Under the pieces are notes generated by a model. It was not told where the DNA came from and made no database searches. It saw only the letters and a program-made list of their open reading frames with translations. Source: a phage. From it: DNA of 64,000 nucleotides. The position numbers and the translations under genes were made by a program. Shown piece after piece: positions 3,506 through 47,588 of the stretch. Position 1 is the first letter of the stretch, and the number at the start of each line of letters is the position of its first letter. The stretch lies in sequence record PZ386970.1. One strand, given 5' to 3'.

Positions 3506-3740
3506 CCTCGATGCAGGCTTCAGCCATTTTCAGAAGAGAACCAGGAGTATCACCGTCCATTACATTGAAACTGAATTCCACAGCCCAGTCTGTACAGACA
3601 CGAACTGCTTTAACTTCACCGTCTTCAACTCGTAATGGTTCAATCCAGTATTTCACTGTGTTCTCGAATCCATCATCATCTTTAACGTCTATTTCAACTT
3701 CAAGCCCGAGCCCAGCATTGTTAAATTCATCTAAAGTCAT
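3480..3740 (-). CDS. hypothetical acidic protein (46.2-like position)
   Basis: 86 aa acidic ORF with start overlapping the gp47 stop; no recognisable motif. Confidence 0.4.
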   Translation of the reverse strand: MTLDEFNNAGLGLEVEIDVKDDDGFENTVKYWIEPLRVEDGEVKAVRVCTDWAVEFSFNVMDGDTPGSLLKMAEACIEDAYNDYED

Positions 3741-4756
3741 TGTGTTGCCTCAATATAAAGTTCGTTGGAATATTTGACCAGCGCTTCTCTGTCTTCGTCT
3801 GAGATATCTGGAATCGCATCAATATATTCTTTAATGATATCTTGAAGTGATTTAATCTCGATTTCCTGGTCGTCATCGGATTCAACACTGTTATCAACTT
3901 TAGAAACCATACGAAGAGAGTGAACTACTTTTTCAAGTTCAGATTCAAACTTAGTCAATTCTGAATCAATTTCTGATACTATAACACGTACGGCTAGATT
4001 AGTATAATCAGAATAATTGATTTTGCCTTTAAACGGATAAGTGATTCGTCGATGCCATGTTGTTTCATTAGGAATAAATTCCATACGTTCAACATCAGTG
4101 TCAAATACCCAGAATCCGCGCGGGTCATTCTCATCGCCTGCAGTAAGGGTCCATGGTGTCCCAATATATTTGACGTTAGCAGCTTCAGAGATTGTGTGGA
4201 AGTGGCCAGACCAGACTTGTTTATAGGTCTTTAAGAAATCAGGTTCAAGCCCATGAGACTTCATTCCTTTATAGAAATAAAAGCCATTCAGTTCCCAGTG
4301 TCCAACACAATACGCAGCAGAAGAAGTCTTGATGTGCTCTAAGATTTCACCTGTATTTTCTTCACACATCCATGGAATTAAATCAATCAGACACCCATCG
4401 AAATCAACAGTCGTAGGTTTATCATAAATAACAACATTTTTACGATGAGACAAAAGCTCTTGGGTTGTATTAGGGTATAAAGTTGTCTTATAAAAAAGGT
4501 CGTGGTTACCCAAAATAGTGTGAACGGTTATTCCAGCGTTTTCAGCCATATCAAATAATTCACGAGTAAACTCCATACAACGTTGTGTTGTGTGAGCTCG
4601 TACATCAAATACGTCCCCGTACTGTATCCATGTTGTTATTCCATTTTTAACAGAATAATCCACCATTTGTTTGAATCCGTGTCGTTGGATGTTTTGAATC
4701 CAAACATCATCCTTTTTTACACCTAAGTGCAAATCGCCCACGTTAAGAATTTTCAT
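3737..4756 (-). CDS. 47: recombination endonuclease nuclease subunit gp47 (Mre11/SbcD-like)
   Basis: Calcineurin-like phosphoesterase motifs GDLHLG and GNHD; start moved to MKILNVGD by analogy to T4 gp47. Confidence 0.85.
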   Translation of the reverse strand: MKILNVGDLHLGVKKDDVWIQNIQRHGFKQMVDYSVKNGITTWIQYGDVFDVRAHTTQRCMEFTRELFDMAENAGITVHTILGNHDLFYKTTLYPNTTQELLSHRKNVVIYDKPTTVDFDGCLIDLIPWMCEENTGEILEHIKTSSAAYCVGHWELNGFYFYKGMKSHGLEPDFLKTYKQVWSGHFHTISEAANVKYIGTPWTLTAGDENDPRGFWVFDTDVERMEFIPNETTWHRRITYPFKGKINYSDYTNLAVRVIVSEIDSELTKFESELEKVVHSLRMVSKVDNSVESDDDQEIEIKSLQDIIKEYIDAIPDISDEDREALVKYSNELYIEATQ

Positions 4757-20696: not shown

Positions 20697-20963
20697 TTAC
20701 TTATCGCACTTAGCAACATAATTAGGCATATCACAGAATACGGAGCGAGTAACTACTCGGCCCTTTGACCATGCTTCAGTTGCTTGTCCTGCCGTGCTAT
20801 TAATATAGCTTGATTTAATGTTCTCAATACCCTGAGAATGTGATGCATTTACCGAACCGTTGGAAGGTGCAGAAGACTGGTTACCACCAGCTCCTGTACC
20901 TGTGGTAGCACCAACAGAGAATGCCATCATTACTGCGAATAAACCAATTACTAATTTTTTCAT
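20697..20963 (-). CDS. small secreted protein (signal peptide)
   Basis: 88 aa; N-terminal MKKLVIGLFAVMMAFSVGA signal-like segment, Gly/Ser/Thr-rich linker, C-terminal Cys pair. Confidence 0.5.
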   Translation of the reverse strand: MKKLVIGLFAVMMAFSVGATTGTGAGGNQSSAPSNGSVNASHSQGIENIKSSYINSTAGQATEAWSKGRVVTRSVFCDMPNYVAKCDK

Positions 20964-23837: not shown

Positions 23838-24140
23838 TTAGATAGATGTAGGCTCTAATTTTATTTTCATGAACTCGGCAAATTGTCTGGCAGTTTTTAT
23901 GCCTTGTTCGTGACATTCAAATGCATCATCACAGGGGCTATTTTTGTAATGCTTTGCCATATACTTATAGAATTTTTCAGAATTCTCGACATTTTGAATT
24001 TCAAACAAAGTATATACGTTTTTAATCCCTGATTCCATAAAGTTATCAAAATATGGGTCGGTGTACGCAGTACCAACGATAGGAGTTGTTGCTGCAAAAA
24101 ACCCCAGCATCGCCATGACAGCTATCGCTCTTAAGGCCAT
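23838..24140 (-). CDS. rI: lysis-inhibition regulator RI-like membrane protein
   Basis: 100 aa with N-terminal signal-anchor MALRAIAVMAMLGFFAA and periplasmic domain with conserved Cys pair; position upstream of tk as in T4. Confidence 0.55.
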   Translation of the reverse strand: MALRAIAVMAMLGFFAATTPIVGTAYTDPYFDNFMESGIKNVYTLFEIQNVENSEKFYKYMAKHYKNSPCDDAFECHEQGIKTARQFAEFMKIKLEPTSI

Positions 24141-24152
24141 ATAGGCCTCCTG

Positions 24153-24365
24153 TTAATTTTGGCCAGTATTTATTTTTCGCCTTTGGACGGCCTTAACATC
24201 TGTGAGGTATTTTTCCAGCTTGCGCTTGCGTGTATAATCAGCTTTAGAACCAGTTTGACGGATATCCTCGTTTAAATGAGAAATAGAATGTCCTAATTCT
24301 CTTCGGATTTCATCCAATTGGGTTACAGTAAGATTACGAAGTTGTCTTTCGTTTAATTGCTGCAT
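24153..24365 (-). CDS. hypothetical protein (rI.-1 position)
   Basis: 70 aa basic, helical ORF. Confidence 0.4.
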
Positions 24366-24983: not shown

Positions 24984-25166
24984 TTATAGTGAATTCACAT
25001 AGTCAATGAGTTCTTGTTCTTTCCTGTCAAATGATTCCAACAATGCTTGATATTCTTCATCTGTTAAAGGAGCATATTCATCGTACGCATTGGTGGCTGC
25101 TTGCTCATCCAATAGGTCATGGATAAGTTCGAACAGTTTAGCTTTCTCTTCTTTAGTCAATTTCAT
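24984..25166 (-). CDS. hypothetical acidic protein
   Basis: 60 aa ORF; no motif. Confidence 0.35.
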   Translation of the reverse strand: MKLTKEEKAKLFELIHDLLDEQAATNAYDEYAPLTDEEYQALLESFDRKEQELIDYVNSL

Positions 25167-25657
25167 TTAGGTTCCCAATCAACAATCACAATTTCTAGTT
25201 TAGTGGAATACGTATCTAAAATCTCTTCGATGACATCCCAGTTTCCACCACCAATACCTGCACCAATTCTTGGCATATAAATTACAGGCTTTGTTATCTT
25301 ATTCTTTCCGAATTTATTTAATTCTATTATACAATTCATTAAAGCAGAGTACTCAAAATTAGGTCCCGGCTCAAACTGTGTATAAAGATTAAAGCAATAA
25401 GCTTTATGGGTCTTAAAATATTTTTCATAAACTGAATAAGTCCCGAGTTTAGACTCGTCTCCGAATTCGGTTTGAAGTTTATCGGCTTCTAAAATTTTTG
25501 GATAAGCCTTTGCTAATTGACCTGCTACACCGGCGCCCATTGTATGAAAACAATTACACCCATGAGCAATATTATTACCTTTAGAAAACAGGGCGACAAT
25601 ATCGCCCTTGATATAGTTTTTAATCACTTGCTGCAAGTCCTCTAGTATAAGAGTCAA
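25163..25657 (-). CDS. macro-domain protein (ADP-ribose binding/hydrolase fold)
   Basis: 164 aa; NIAHGCNCFHTMGAGVAGQLAKA and C-terminal IGAGIGGGNWDV glycine-rich loops typical of macro domains. Confidence 0.6.
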   Translation of the reverse strand: MTLILEDLQQVIKNYIKGDIVALFSKGNNIAHGCNCFHTMGAGVAGQLAKAYPKILEADKLQTEFGDESKLGTYSVYEKYFKTHKAYCFNLYTQFEPGPNFEYSALMNCIIELNKFGKNKITKPVIYMPRIGAGIGGGNWDVIEEILDTYSTKLEIVIVDWEPK

Positions 25658-25958
25658 CTAGACGGTCCACCATAGAATTGCATGCTGCCTTATCTTTAGG
25701 TTCCGCCACCGAGCATTCTAATATTTGCCATTTTTTATAGTATCTTTTAATTAAGGTAGACGCCTTGAACCTACTAGACGCCCCATCTTTTTCTCCGTCT
25801 TTATACGCATATAACAATTTTTGTGAAAAATCTACTTTACACTCTTGACTTTTACCACAATAATCAGACGCCGTTCTGTTTGTATACTCCGTCACATCAG
25901 TATATGTAGTATTAGCAAGAGCGTTAAATGAAACCAAGCCAACTATTAAAGCCAACAT
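25620..25958 (-). CDS. secreted/periplasmic protein with signal peptide
   Basis: N-terminal MLALIVGLVSFNALA signal peptide, four Cys in mature part; position could correspond to T4 vs, not verified. Confidence 0.4.
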   Translation of the reverse strand: MLALIVGLVSFNALANTTYTDVTEYTNRTASDYCGKSQECKVDFSQKLLYAYKDGEKDGASSRFKASTLIKRYYKKWQILECSVAEPKDKAACNSMVDRLVDSYTRGLAASD

Positions 25959-25963
25959 TTTGG

Positions 25964-26506
25964 TCATTCTTTTATTTCCAGTAGTTTATTTGATTTAAGG
26001 TAATTAGCCTTTTCTAGGACTTCAGAAGCATATTTACTTCCAGCACTTGTCTTCCATCCCGCATTATATGAGGATATGGCTTTTCTTATATCCCCGTTAT
26101 GTATATTTAACCAATAAGAAAATTCGATATAAGCCCATCTTGCTGAATTAGACCGCTTAGATAGCATTTTCTTAATTTGGGCATCAGTCATATTATAACC
26201 AAGCTGGTTAATTCTTGCCCTCATTGTTGGTAGATAGTTTTGGAACATTCCATACGCATGGTGACCTTTCTTATCTTTAAGATTAATACCGGCAGATGAT
26301 TCTTGCCATAATATTGCGGCCATTATGTATCCAAGTCCTTTCTTATGCATATTTTCATGCGTTTTAAATTTTCCGTCCTTAGAAAACTGTTCCCCAAACT
26401 GATAAGCATAATTCAAGTTATCGAGTTGGACATTACTAAAAGTATGCTCGGAGCTATGTGCTGATAATGAAAGAGCAAATAGACCAGCGAGTAGTGCTTT
26501 TCTCAT
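25964..26506 (-). CDS. lytic transglycosylase (SLT domain) with signal peptide
   Basis: Signal peptide MRKALLAGLFALSLSAHS; SLT-like motifs AILWQESS (catalytic Glu), YGMFQ, SYNAGW. Confidence 0.6.
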   Translation of the reverse strand: MRKALLAGLFALSLSAHSSEHTFSNVQLDNLNYAYQFGEQFSKDGKFKTHENMHKKGLGYIMAAILWQESSAGINLKDKKGHHAYGMFQNYLPTMRARINQLGYNMTDAQIKKMLSKRSNSARWAYIEFSYWLNIHNGDIRKAISSYNAGWKTSAGSKYASEVLEKANYLKSNKLLEIKE

Positions 26507-26514
26507 GTTTACCT

Positions 26515-26973
26515 CTAGATTTTAATCACTGCTTTAGAAGCTTTTCCTGGTAGTCGTTTACTGTTAATAATAGCCATTCTGCATTGAAGAGTCTTCATTT
26601 TGAATGCTGGATTTTCGCGACAAACTGTAAGGCCTAACCAAAGATTTCCATCAGTTATTTCTAAACGGCCTGGGCGATATTCGACACCTTCAACAAAATC
26701 TTCATCAACATCCGGACGTGCCGGCATTGATAAAAATTCTGCAACTTCTTTAACATGATTTTTTACTTTATGAAATAATTCAAAAACGTAGTTCTCATCT
26801 ATTTCTCTCTGGATGGCACGATCTAAGAGATGTTGAGAATACTTGATATGAAAGCCTGGTAGTCCAAGAGACTTTGCAGCATCTTTTATACCGGCATTTA
26901 TTTTGCGGAACTCCGTTTCAAAGATTCGACGGAGTTTATTACGGCGGATAAAAACTTCCGAATTGATAGTCAT
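26515..26973 (-). CDS. regB: endoribonuclease RegB
   Basis: 152 aa; size, position after the vs genes and overall similarity to T4 RegB as recalled. Confidence 0.7.
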   Translation of the reverse strand: MTINSEVFIRRNKLRRIFETEFRKINAGIKDAAKSLGLPGFHIKYSQHLLDRAIQREIDENYVFELFHKVKNHVKEVAEFLSMPARPDVDEDFVEGVEYRPGRLEITDGNLWLGLTVCRENPAFKMKTLQCRMAIINSKRLPGKASKAVIKI

Positions 26974-27001
26974 TTTGATTTCTCCTCTAGTTGACAGGTC
27001 T

Positions 27002-27030
27002 ATAGTAACACAACTAGAGGAGAAGTAAAC
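27002..27030 (-). promoter_or_regulatory. T4-type early promoter
   Basis: Minus strand GTTTAC-17 nt-TGT-TACTAT, 30 nt upstream of the regB start with a GAGGAG ribosome-binding site between. Confidence 0.5.
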
Positions 27031-27034
27031 TACT

Positions 27035-27244
27035 TTATTCTTGGAATGGTGTGAGTTTTCCAGCTATCGAACAAATTTCTACCATCGCAGGATAAAACTC
27101 TTTCACTTGTTCAAGGCGCTGGACAGCGTACCGCATTTCGCCTTCTTCAAGACAAGCCGCTTGGTCATCGAGCAAATATTTGTGGTAACCTGTACAGGCT
27201 TCACTAATGATACGTTGGAATTCTTGCAAACTTTCAATTTTCAC
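27035..27244 (-). CDS. hypothetical protein (vs.3 position)
   Basis: 69 aa ORF. Confidence 0.35.
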   Translation of the reverse strand: MKIESLQEFQRIISEACTGYHKYLLDDQAACLEEGEMRYAVQRLEQVKEFYPAMVEICSIAGKLTPFQE

Positions 27245-30837: not shown

Positions 30838-31119
30838 CTATTTTTCTGAAGCGCCTGAAATATATTTTTCAAGACGTTGTTTCATCAGCGAGCCGTTCTT
30901 AGCGATTTCTTCCGGTTTATCGCACATACGCAACAGTGCTTCAAGCTTAACGATATCACTGGTGCGCTCAAATTTGCGAGTATCTATCTTACTAGCAAGT
31001 TCAGAAATACGTGCTAATAGACTTTCGGCTTCGACCAAAGCTGCACCTAGCTTAGTTGCAAATGTGTCAGTAGCTTCGTTAAGAATAGATTCTGATAAAA
31101 ATTCACTATATGTTTTCAT
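30838..31119 (-). CDS. internal protein-like (capsid-targeting N-terminus)
   Basis: Start moved to [10 protein letters not shown]; helical 93 aa protein. Confidence 0.5.
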
Positions 31120-31604
31120 ATATACGCTTTCCAAGTTCCTGTTTTAAATGTTGAGATTACGCGTTTCGCGCGATTGGGTGTCTGACGATACCATTTAGAT
31201 TGGGCTAGATTTACTGCCGCCTCGTCCCAACGTTTCTGTTGAAGCATACGAAGAGAATTAGTAAAACCGGCGACGCCTGCTACACCCATTTGGAAGACCA
31301 TATTGACCAGTGCACATCGACGAACCGCATCTAAAGAATCATACACCGGTTTAAGTTTAGCATTACCCAAGATTCCGCGAACGGCTTTATCAACGTCTTC
31401 ATTAAATAGCTTTTCAGCCTCATCAAGGGTAATTGTACCATTGCATTTACGACCGATCATTCTGTCAAGTTCAGCTTTAGCTACGGCTAAAGACGGGTTC
31501 TTTGTTACTAAATGGCCTATGCCAATCGTCCAAAAGCCTTCAGTGTCTTTGTATAAAGTCAGTCTAAGACCTTCGTCATTACGAAGCATTTCAAATATAT
31601 TCAT
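31116..31604 (-). CDS. e: endolysin (T4 lysozyme, gene e)
   Basis: [32 protein letters not shown]... matches T4 lysozyme as recalled, including the catalytic Glu and Asp. Confidence 0.9.
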
Positions 31605-45855: not shown

Positions 45856-47588
45856 TGGAAATGATTAGCAGTAGCCTTAATTGGTTCGTGGGTGTTGTCG
45901 AGGACAGAATGGACCCATTAAAACAAGGGCGAGTTCGAGTTCGAGTCGTTGGTCTTCATCCGGCACAGAGAGCACAAGGTGATGTACAAGGTATTCCTAC
46001 AGAAAAACTTCCATGGATGACTGTTATTCAACCTATTACGTCTGCATCAATGTCAGGTATTGGTGGTTCTGTTACAGGTCCTGTTGAAGGAACTCGAGTA
46101 TATGGTCATTTCTTAGACAAATGGAAAACAAACGGGATTGTACTTGGTACATACGGCGGAATCGTACGTGAAAAGCCTAATAGACTTGAAGGTTTTTCAG
46201 ACCCGACAGGCCAGTATCCACGACGTTTAGGTAATGATACGAACGTATTAAACCAAGGTGGTGAAGCTGGTTATTATTCGAACTCTAACGTAATTCAAGA
46301 TAACAACTTAGATTATGGTATAAACCCAGACGATACAGATTTAGCAAATATTCCAGAAGATGACGACCCTAATTTTACAATAACAGAAATGTTACGTCGT
46401 GACGAAGGTCTTCGTGATAAAGTGTATTGGGACCATCTCGGGTATCCTACAGTAGGTATTGGACACCTTATCGTAATGGAAAAGACCCGAGATATGTCTC
46501 GAATTAATAAATTGTTATCTGATCAAGTAGGGCGTGAAGTAACAGGAAATCCGGGAACTATTACATTAGAAGAAGCAACAGCGTTATTCGAGAAAGACCT
46601 TGCTAAGATGCAGAAAGACATTCGTTCTAATTCTAAAGTAGGTCCTGTTTATGCTAAAATGAACAGATCTCGTCAAATGGCATTAGAAAACATGTGTTTC
46701 CAAATGGGTGTTGGTGGTGTAGCAAAATTCAATACTATGCTTAAAGCAATGGCCGAAGGCGATTGGAAAACTGCATACAAATCTGGACGCGATTCATTAT
46801 GGTTCCAACAGACTAAAGGACGTGCTTCACGCGTAACAACAATTATTTTAACTGGTAACATGGAATCATACGGTGTTCCTGTTAAAACACCACCTTCACC
46901 AGGAGTTGGTGCCGATTTAGTTACTAGAAATACTGATTCAGAAGACCCGGCCGGTCCTCCTGTTCCATTAGATTCACGTATCCTTTTTAAAGAACCGGAA
47001 TCAAGTTATCGCGGTGAGTATCCATACGTTCATGCTATGGAAACAGAAAGTGGTCATATCCAAGAATTTGATGACACTCCAGGTAATGAACGTTATCGCT
47101 TAGTTCATCCAACAGGGTCATATGAGGAAGTTTCTCCATCTGGGCGTCGTACTCGTAAAACTGTAGAAGACCTTTTTGACATCACTAATGGTGATGGGAA
47201 CTTCTTGATTTCTGGTGATAAACTTGTTAACGTTGGTGCTAATGAAATATATTATAACATGGCAGACCGCCTCCATCAAATAGACGGCAATGACACAATC
47301 TTTATTCGTGGTAACCAAACTAAAACTGTTGAAGGCGATGGAACTCTTTACGTTAAGGGCAATATCAAAATAGTTGTTGACGGAAATGCAGATATTCTTG
47401 TTAAAGGTGATGCTAAAACTCAGGTCGAAGGGAATCATGATTACACCGTCAACGGAAACGTTAAATGGACTGTTAATGGTAATGTTGATATGACTGTTGC
47501 CGGGGATTGGGCAGAAACGATGTCTACAATGAGCTCAGTAGCTTCAGGACAATACACTGTTGACGGATCTCGTATTGATATTGGGTAA
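45855..47588 (+). CDS. 5: baseplate central spike / tail lysozyme gp5
   Basis: 577 aa; internal lysozyme domain (RRDEGLRDKVYWDHLGYPTVGIGHL) and C-terminal repetitive VxGxxK beta-helix. Confidence 0.9.
   Translation: MEMISSSLNWFVGVVEDRMDPLKQGRVRVRVVGLHPAQRAQGDVQGIPTEKLPWMTVIQPITSASMSGIGGSVTGPVEGTRVYGHFLDKWKTNGIVLGTYGGIVREKPNRLEGFSDPTGQYPRRLGNDTNVLNQGGEAGYYSNSNVIQDNNLDYGINPDDTDLANIPEDDDPNFTITEMLRRDEGLRDKVYWDHLGYPTVGIGHLIVMEKTRDMSRINKLLSDQVGREVTGNPGTITLEEATALFEKDLAKMQKDIRSNSKVGPVYAKMNRSRQMALENMCFQMGVGGVAKFNTMLKAMAEGDWKTAYKSGRDSLWFQQTKGRASRVTTIILTGNMESYGVPVKTPPSPGVGADLVTRNTDSEDPAGPPVPLDSRILFKEPESSYRGEYPYVHAMETESGHIQEFDDTPGNERYRLVHPTGSYEEVSPSGRRTRKTVEDLFDITNGDGNFLISGDKLVNVGANEIYYNMADRLHQIDGNDTIFIRGNQTKTVEGDGTLYVKGNIKIVVDGNADILVKGDAKTQVEGNHDYTVNGNVKWTVNGNVDMTVAGDWAETMSTMSSVASGQYTVDGSRIDIG

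Follow-up and report, generated by a model that had tools for sequence, protein, structure and literature searches.

The vs.1-vs gene pair of T4-like phages as a candidate periplasmic murein-remodelling module

We analyzed a 64,000-nucleotide stretch of phage DNA (sequence record PZ386970.1; "the window" denotes this whole stretch) with regard to two adjacent open reading frames (ORFs) on its minus strand, which are the orthologs of the T4 genes vs.1 and vs. The best explanation of the data, to which we assign a probability of about 0.6, is that the regB-vs.1-vs-tk.4 message provides a periplasmic lytic transglycosylase, Vs.1, together with a second exported protein, Vs, and that the two constitute an accessory murein-remodelling module. 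An initial annotation, made from the sequence alone, had pointed to a pair of adjacent signal-peptide ORFs in the vs region, one of them with an SLT-type domain, and this pair is indeed present (Table 1). Both ORFs are already catalogued T4 genes, and the SLT similarity of vs.1 has been in print since 2003/2006: Nolan 2006 described the match as marginal but conserved in six T4-like genomes, suggested "some role in cell lysis", and credits the same observation to the T4 genome review of Miller 2003. What our analysis adds is that the sequence of Vs has all the hallmarks of export and that Vs accompanies Vs.1 throughout the Straboviridae. More than 2000 sequenced virulent myoviruses (T4-likes, Kuttervirus and Felixounavirus) encode a predicted exported lytic transglycosylase of this pre-replicative kind, which represents a gap in the picture of the best-studied phage, and the textbook label of Vs looks incompatible with its sequence, so that a widespread annotation would be wrong or incomplete if Vs is periplasmic.

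Judged from its sequence, Vs.1 is very probably a periplasmic GH23 enzyme. The protein of the window is 83% identical to T4 Vs.1 (NP_049725, UniProt P13311; phrog_600) and equal to it in length. It matches the Pfam SLT profile (PF01464) at E=0.0013 with 18.8 bits, where the gathering score is 21.3; among 35 diverse homologs, 32 match the same profile at E≤0.01, with 1.3e-7 as the lowest value, and PF01464 is listed among the precomputed matches of several. The motifs WQESS, GMFQ and SYNAGW noted in the initial annotation correspond to motifs I to III of the family-1 lytic transglycosylases, whose definitions follow the Blackburn and Clarke classification, and their key positions are invariant or nearly so in the alignment of the 35 homologs (39–83% identity; Table 1), as is Y159. 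Lack of the catalytic Glu on alignment had been named as grounds for giving up the assignment; E69 is invariant in all 35 sequences, and a weak profile alignment places it on the "AWNES" Glu of EtgA. The protein also contains a family-specific N-terminal helix (residues 23–38) in which Q27, N30, A34 and G38 are invariant. In the fold search, with Foldseek E-values of only ~0.02, Vs.1 matches the lysozyme-like, all-helical catalytic fold, and its structural neighbours include the g-type lysozyme/PliG and Tse3/Tsi3 complexes. An NCBIfam search gave no matches. Vs.1 is distinct from endolysin e and from the gp5 lysozyme domain, as had been proposed, both of which lie elsewhere in the window, and a search of the window for a second copy of Vs.1 found none.

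Both N-termini have the classical tripartite layout of a signal peptide: a basic n-region, then 11–13 uncharged, hydrophobic residues as the h-region, and a small-x-small site at positions -3 and -1. The signal-peptide calls combine a crude heuristic of our own (n-, h- and c-regions, small-x-small site) with conservation in 35 Vs.1 and 64 Vs homologs. The heuristic flags 6 of the 108 gene-like ORFs of the window, namely gp45 (a false positive), an 88-residue ORF, rI, a membrane-like ORF, Vs.1 and Vs, and at this rate chance does not account for two positives side by side. The signal peptides of Vs.1 vary in sequence across the homologs but keep their character (one ortholog, for example, ends in SPTIFA/E, the slash marking the predicted cleavage site), and the predicted N-terminus of T4 Vs.1, after the AHS/S site, is SEHTFSNVQLDNMR. 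T4 Vs begins with the signal peptide MTKILVLCIGLISFSASASA/D, with the site ASA/D and DTSYTEIR after it. A signal peptide was called in 63 of the 64 Vs homologs; the remaining one (locus L041) comes from a split vs and represents its C-terminal part, while the N-terminal fragment (3549..3746) of that gene bears an LSGC lipobox. In the CC31/PG7-like lineage, to be precise, a lipoprotein signal with this LSGC lipobox replaces the plain signal peptide. From these features we consider it quite probable that Vs is extracytoplasmic. The insolubility of N-His-tagged full-length T4 Vs expressed in the cytoplasm (PMC8076793) fits export, weakly. We rejected a lipoprotein reading for Vs.1, which has no lipobox in its sequence. 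For the flagged 88-residue ORF (20697..20963, minus strand) the signal-peptide prediction, MKKLVIGLFAVMMAFSVGA/TTG, is strong; with two Cys in its mature part, it is a further small exported phage protein.

Vs is 67% identical over its full length to T4 Vs (NP_049724, UniProt P13310; PF26829), has the same length of 115 residues and the same position, and matches phrog_1256 at E=5e-35. The initial annotation had described the neighbour of the SLT-domain protein as an exported Cys-containing protein, and that description holds, since the ORF has a predicted signal peptide and four Cys (37, 43, 85 and 96) in its mature part; that the ORF is Vs, the "valyl-tRNA synthetase modifier", had gone unrecognized. 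The precursor is 12.9–13.1 kDa and the predicted mature protein 10,992 Da. Among 23 diverse members, C37, C43, G58, C96 and G110 do not vary, every sequence has the third Cys, with a register shift of ~2 residues, and the C-terminal motif (Table 1) is invariant among close relatives. The AlphaFold2 model, which was built from a 7-sequence alignment and was confident in 2 of 5 runs only, has a pLDDT (predicted local distance difference test) of 83.9 and four helices (residues 13–37, 41–63, 69–85 and 90–113). In this model the Cys pairs sit at helix turns, which fits two disulfide staples and not a zinc site. A fold search with the model returned generic helical bundles only and hence no structural lead to function, a search with Vs and its family profile against all PDB chains gave nothing significant, and a local Pfam scan gave no match for Vs.

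The family of Vs appears tiny in close-homolog searches, with 4 clusters in one search and 7 matches in an exhaustive phmmer search of 1.8 billion representatives. In Acinetobacter phage PhT2 the ORF that follows vs.1 has the layout of Vs, as does an ORF close to vs.1 in the Pseudotevenvirus IME-CF2, and it took a hidden Markov model (HMM) of our own, seeded with these versions from Acinetobacter phages and Pseudotevenvirus, to reveal the wider family. Clustering divides the 64 Vs homologs into 33 groups at 90% identity and into 19 at 60%; the numbers for Vs.1 are 32 and 10, so Vs evolves faster. Two loci carry damaged vs genes: in a PG7-like one (L041, 3549..3876) the gene is split into ORFs of 65 and 55 residues, and in a vB_EcoM_005-like one (L026, 3541..3798) an internal deletion removes the C37/C43 region and leaves 85 residues. 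It appears that Vs is dispensable or decaying in some phages, or that these are sequencing errors.

The two genes are physically linked in the window and in their relatives. In the window, the stop codon of vs.1 and the start codon of vs share the overlap ATGA, and the Shine-Dalgarno sequence before vs is weak while vs.1 has GAGG, which together suggest that the translation of vs is coupled to that of vs.1. We counted linkage in 71 related IMG/VR loci: with the HMM, 64 of them have a homolog of Vs downstream of vs.1, and in 55 the gap between the two genes is -8 to +7 nt. These 55 abutting loci include seven from Acinetobacter phages, which have neither regB upstream nor tk.4 downstream, and 14 in which additional genes lie between vs and tk.4. 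The vs.1 and vs genes of Pseudotevenvirus are separated by one or two others. In a tblastn search, relatives of Vs.1 occurred in 2053 phage records, from Straboviridae of enterobacteria, Acinetobacter, Aeromonas and Vibrio as well as Kuttervirus (Ackermannviridae) and Felixounavirus, and the Kuttervirus and Felixounavirus versions likewise start with signal peptides. Both T4 genes are classed as "early-RNA_middle-Protein" in a time-resolved transcriptome-proteome study (PMC9697503, supplement), which implies that both proteins are made and that this happens before replication; the earlier suggestion that the enzyme is made early is borne out by this class.

Table 1 Features of the vs.1-vs locus and related genes in the window (a slash marks a predicted cleavage site).
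Feature	Coordinates	Strand	Basis or remark
vs.1 ortholog, 180 residues, predicted exported GH23 / family-1-type lytic transglycosylase	25964..26506	-	
Vs.1 predicted signal peptide, residues 1-18, MRKALLAGLFALSLSAHS/SEH	26453..26506	-	heuristic; equivalents in 35/35 homologs and in IMG/VR loci
Vs.1 motif I, WQESS, residues 67-71	26294..26308	-	E69 and S71 invariant, W67 nearly invariant in 35 homologs
Vs.1 putative catalytic Glu69 codon, GAA	26300..26302	-	within motif I
Vs.1 motif II, GMFQ (GLMQ-type), residues 86-89	26240..26251	-	G86, Q89 and also N90 invariant in 35 homologs
Vs.1 motif III, SYNAGW (AYNxG-type), residues 146-151	26054..26071	-	Y147, N148 and G150 invariant; S146 and A149 at least 90% conserved
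ATGA overlap, vs.1 stop (TGA) on vs start (ATG)	25964..25967	-	read from sequence
vs ortholog ("valyl-tRNA synthetase modifier"), 115 residues, predicted exported four-Cys helical-bundle protein	25620..25967	-	
Vs predicted signal peptide, residues 1-18, MTKMLALIVGLVSFNALA/NTT	25914..25967	-	heuristic; homolog conservation
Vs Cys37...Cys43 (C-x5-C), helix1-helix2 turn	25839..25859	-	both invariant in 23 diverse Vs
Vs Cys85...Cys96, helix3-helix4 turn, and C-terminal motif C-x-SMVDRLVDSY-x-RGL	25635..25715	-	
regB endoribonuclease	26515..26973	-	8 nt upstream of vs.1; Pfam REGB_T4, E=4e-69
tk.4, macro-domain gene	25163..25627	-	Pfam Macro, E=1.7e-6
rI and rI.1	23838..24365		near vs.1 and vs
endolysin e (T4 lysozyme) ortholog	31119..31604	-	
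gp5-type lysozyme domain	46380..46871	+	41% identical to e

Taken together, these data suggest the following mechanism. vs.1 and vs would be read from the pre-replicative polycistronic message regB-vs.1-vs-tk.4. Vs.1 would be exported by the Sec pathway and lose its 18-residue signal peptide, and the mature protein would be a soluble, single-domain periplasmic enzyme of ~18.7 kDa that uses Glu69 to cleave glycan strands in the sacculus of the infected cell itself. Vs, whose translation would be coupled to that of vs.1, would be exported as well, lipoprotein-anchored in one lineage, and would fold as an 11-kDa four-helix bundle with disulfides C37-C43 and C85-C96. Its place of action may then be the envelope, where it would most likely serve Vs.1 as a restraining or directing partner, a modulator or an inhibitor; that Vs works with or on Vs.1 is a tentative proposal. 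The module would stand outside the holin, endolysin e and spanin lysis pathway. For the idea that the enzyme acts on neighbouring cells, which had also been raised, we found no support: a periplasmic enzyme would be freed only at lysis, and the outer membrane of the neighbours would be in its way.

Several observations weigh against the proposed module. The partnership between Vs and Vs.1 is deduced from adjacency and co-export alone, and regB adjoins vs.1 in 49 of the 71 loci, which makes this junction almost as stable as the one between vs.1 and vs. The Vs.1-like enzymes of Aeromonas T4-like phages, Kuttervirus and Felixounavirus occur without Vs, and this, together with the damaged vs genes, implies that Vs.1 does not depend on Vs. 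On the side of Vs.1, the window protein scores under the Pfam SLT gathering threshold and searches with its sequence and family profile against all PDB chains gave nothing significant; on the side of Vs, a confident model came from a minority of the runs. The literature that we searched yields no enzymatic, localisation or interaction data for either protein and no experimental work on vs.1, and Kutter 2018 and Petrov 2010 mention neither vs nor vs.1. Finally, a phage factor that binds the cytoplasmic valyl-tRNA synthetase (ValRS) was described by Muller & Marchin in 1975 and 1977, as these papers are cited in PMC8076793, and Vs is annotated across GenBank as the "valyl-tRNA synthetase modifier". 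Should this long-standing biochemical and genetic assignment hold for the present ORF, it would speak against a role confined to the periplasm.

The function in the name of T4 Vs is thus cytoplasmic, whereas the sequence features of the T4 and the window proteins predict an exported, disulfide-bonded protein. One way to read the data is that Vs is the cytoplasmic tau factor that binds ValRS, that its N-terminus is non-functional or used only partly for export, and that its adjacency to vs.1 is tight packing, which would leave Vs.1 alone in the envelope. The annotation is universal and rooted in the biochemical purification of a ValRS-modifying factor, as far as this is recounted in PMC8076793, and unrelated T4 genes often overlap, as vs itself does with tk.4 and as the abutment of regB and vs.1 in the same 49 loci illustrates. 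Against this reading, the signal peptide persists in nearly all homologs despite sequence turnover and is exchanged for a lipoprotein signal in one lineage, which is hard to explain in a cytoplasmic protein. The four conserved Cys sit at helix turns and not in the CxxC spacing of a zinc knuckle, the Acinetobacter-phage members of the family always lie beside an exported Vs.1, and a scan of the Vs ORF found no internal ATG from which a signal-less form could start, so that the prediction does not place Vs in the same compartment as ValRS. We consider the cytoplasmic reading unlikely. If Vs is periplasmic, it cannot modify ValRS in vivo. A further conjecture, which we hold at clearly less than even odds, is that the ORF which ~800 phage genomes label "valyl-tRNA synthetase modifier" has no cytoplasmic role in translation and encodes instead an envelope protein, exported, stapled by disulfides and in some phages a lipoprotein, that works with Vs.1. 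In that case either tau is the product of a different small ORF between rI and e, or processed Vs meets ValRS only after cell breakage and the 50-year-old "modification" is at least partly an extraction artefact. The purified tau factor was reported at ~10–11 kDa, a size that agrees with the processed form of Vs and not with its precursor and would in itself imply export. We found no re-examination of the Vs-ValRS assignment in the literature searched.

Vs.1 could instead be an auxiliary, pre-positioned second endolysin that makes host lysis faster or more certain, or that tunes lysis inhibition, with Vs as a timing antagonist. The murein-cleaving fold, the intact catalytic motifs and the predicted periplasmic place are all consistent with such a role, rI and rI.1 are close by in the window, phage PhT2 has the order vs.1-vs-two exported ORFs-rI, and a role in lysis is what Nolan 2006 proposed. 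Against this, lysis is absent in T4 e mutants unless they carry a spackle mutation as well, which frees gp5 (RefSeq notes for sp and e), and the failure of e mutants to lyse with spackle intact implies that exported Vs.1 alone does not dissolve the wall. Expression is moreover pre-replicative and not late, and no lysis phenotype mapped to vs.1 was found in the literature searched. We therefore regard a lysis role as improbable. The low Pfam score, the insignificant PDB searches and the Foldseek E-values of Vs.1 could also mean that it is a catalytically silent murein-binding pseudo-enzyme (a decoy or an anchor), or that the SLT match is a chance resemblance; given the invariant motif residues, we see very little room for this. 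The accessory module of Vs.1 and Vs remains our preferred reading.

We noticed several peculiarities of the locus and of its relatives. The window is the genome of a Mosigvirus, a T4-like phage: its ~2-kb stretch 25100..27100 is 98–99% identical to phages of this genus, among them ESh15 and moha, and the minus-strand order rI, rI.1, tk, tk.1, tk.4, vs, vs.1, regB is the T4 gene order. tk.4 starts with GTG at 25627, according to the annotation of phage moha and the sequence, and overlaps the 3' end of vs by 8 nt. A promoter and terminator scan at the locus revealed no dedicated promoter for the vs.1-vs pair. At 25590..25608 on the minus strand, 12 nt past the vs stop codon and within the 5' end of tk.4, there is a GC-rich hairpin of 8 bp with a T-run behind it (AGGGCGATATTGTCGCCCT GTTTTCT), which could be a terminator or attenuator ending the regB-vs.1-vs unit. 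The hairpin is kept in T4, and the same bases encode the conserved Tk.4 sequence KGDIVALF, so its conservation may reflect coding. Many of the 98–99% identical relatives align in two pieces, with ~2350–2415 bp per 1940–2001 query bases, which implies an insertion of ~410 bp in these relatives without a counterpart in the phage studied here; this is probably a small mobile or extra ORF. In public records, Vs.1 is mislabelled "endoribonuclease / RegB" in phage moha (moha_70), in others and in some UniRef names, and many records call Vs "valyl-tRNA synthetase", as if it were the enzyme; in phage Killian it is mislabelled "tail fibers protein".

In more distant phages the surroundings of vs.1 differ. 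Acinetobacter phage PhT2 (L003, 1938..3805) has five genes for exported or membrane proteins in a row, vs.1, vs, a 141-residue signal-peptide ORF, a 99-residue N-terminally anchored ORF and rI, which looks like an envelope-directed cluster tying vs.1 and vs to the lysis-inhibition sensor. In Aeromonas T4-like phages (L063–L065 and L074, ~3850..4550), a 146-residue lipoprotein-like ORF (MKKSIAVVLALSIYGC...) lies just before tk.4, at the usual place of Vs, and may be a non-homologous replacement of it. The Vs.1-like proteins of Kuttervirus S118 (L004, 1908..2525) and Felixounavirus DE7 (L005, 1908..2456) contain 3–4 Cys of their own and have no Vs neighbour, and in Felixounavirus the Vs.1-like gene directly follows rIIA-rIIB.

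We compared the pair with known systems. T4 Vs.1 has the same regB-vs.1-vs-tk.4 synteny, signal peptide and motifs as Vs.1 of the window and differs from it in nothing substantial, and its SLT assignment is likewise bioinformatic only. Compared with the solved family-1 lytic transglycosylases (E. coli Slt70, MltC and MltE/EmtA; P. aeruginosa Slt, MltF and MltD; specialised enzymes such as EtgA), Vs.1 has 13–19% identity and, unlike them, is predicted to be soluble without a lipid anchor, is phage-encoded and is pre-replicative. The signal-anchor-release (SAR) endolysins, such as P1 Lyz and R21 of phage 21, resemble Vs.1 in that they are muralytic enzymes exported by Sec before lysis. A SAR domain is an uncleaved, weakly hydrophobic N-terminal stretch of ~16–20 or more residues. 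The SAR endolysins have a long, Gly/Ala-rich, releasable anchor, whereas Vs.1 has none, is made early and belongs to a phage with a separate endolysin e; its h-region of ~13 residues is followed by the canonical AHS/S cleavage site, and we rejected a SAR endolysin reading on these grounds.

For the pair as a whole, a possible analogy is provided by Spackle and the gp5 lysozyme, PliG and g-type lysozyme, and Tsi3 and Tse3, in each of which a small exported Cys-containing protein meets a periplasmic enzyme of lysozyme fold. Vs itself resembles neither Spackle (hhalign probability, 2%) nor any protein of solved structure in sequence or fold, and comparison with the known inhibitor families (Spackle, Ivy, PliG/MliC and Tsi3) revealed neither homology nor a shared fold. 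Spackle acts on the gp5 of an incoming phage, whereas Vs would act on an enzyme with which it is co-expressed. If our reading is correct, vs.1-vs would be a new enzyme-partner module working on the wall of the infected cell, beside the Spackle-gp5 and rI-holin periplasmic circuits.

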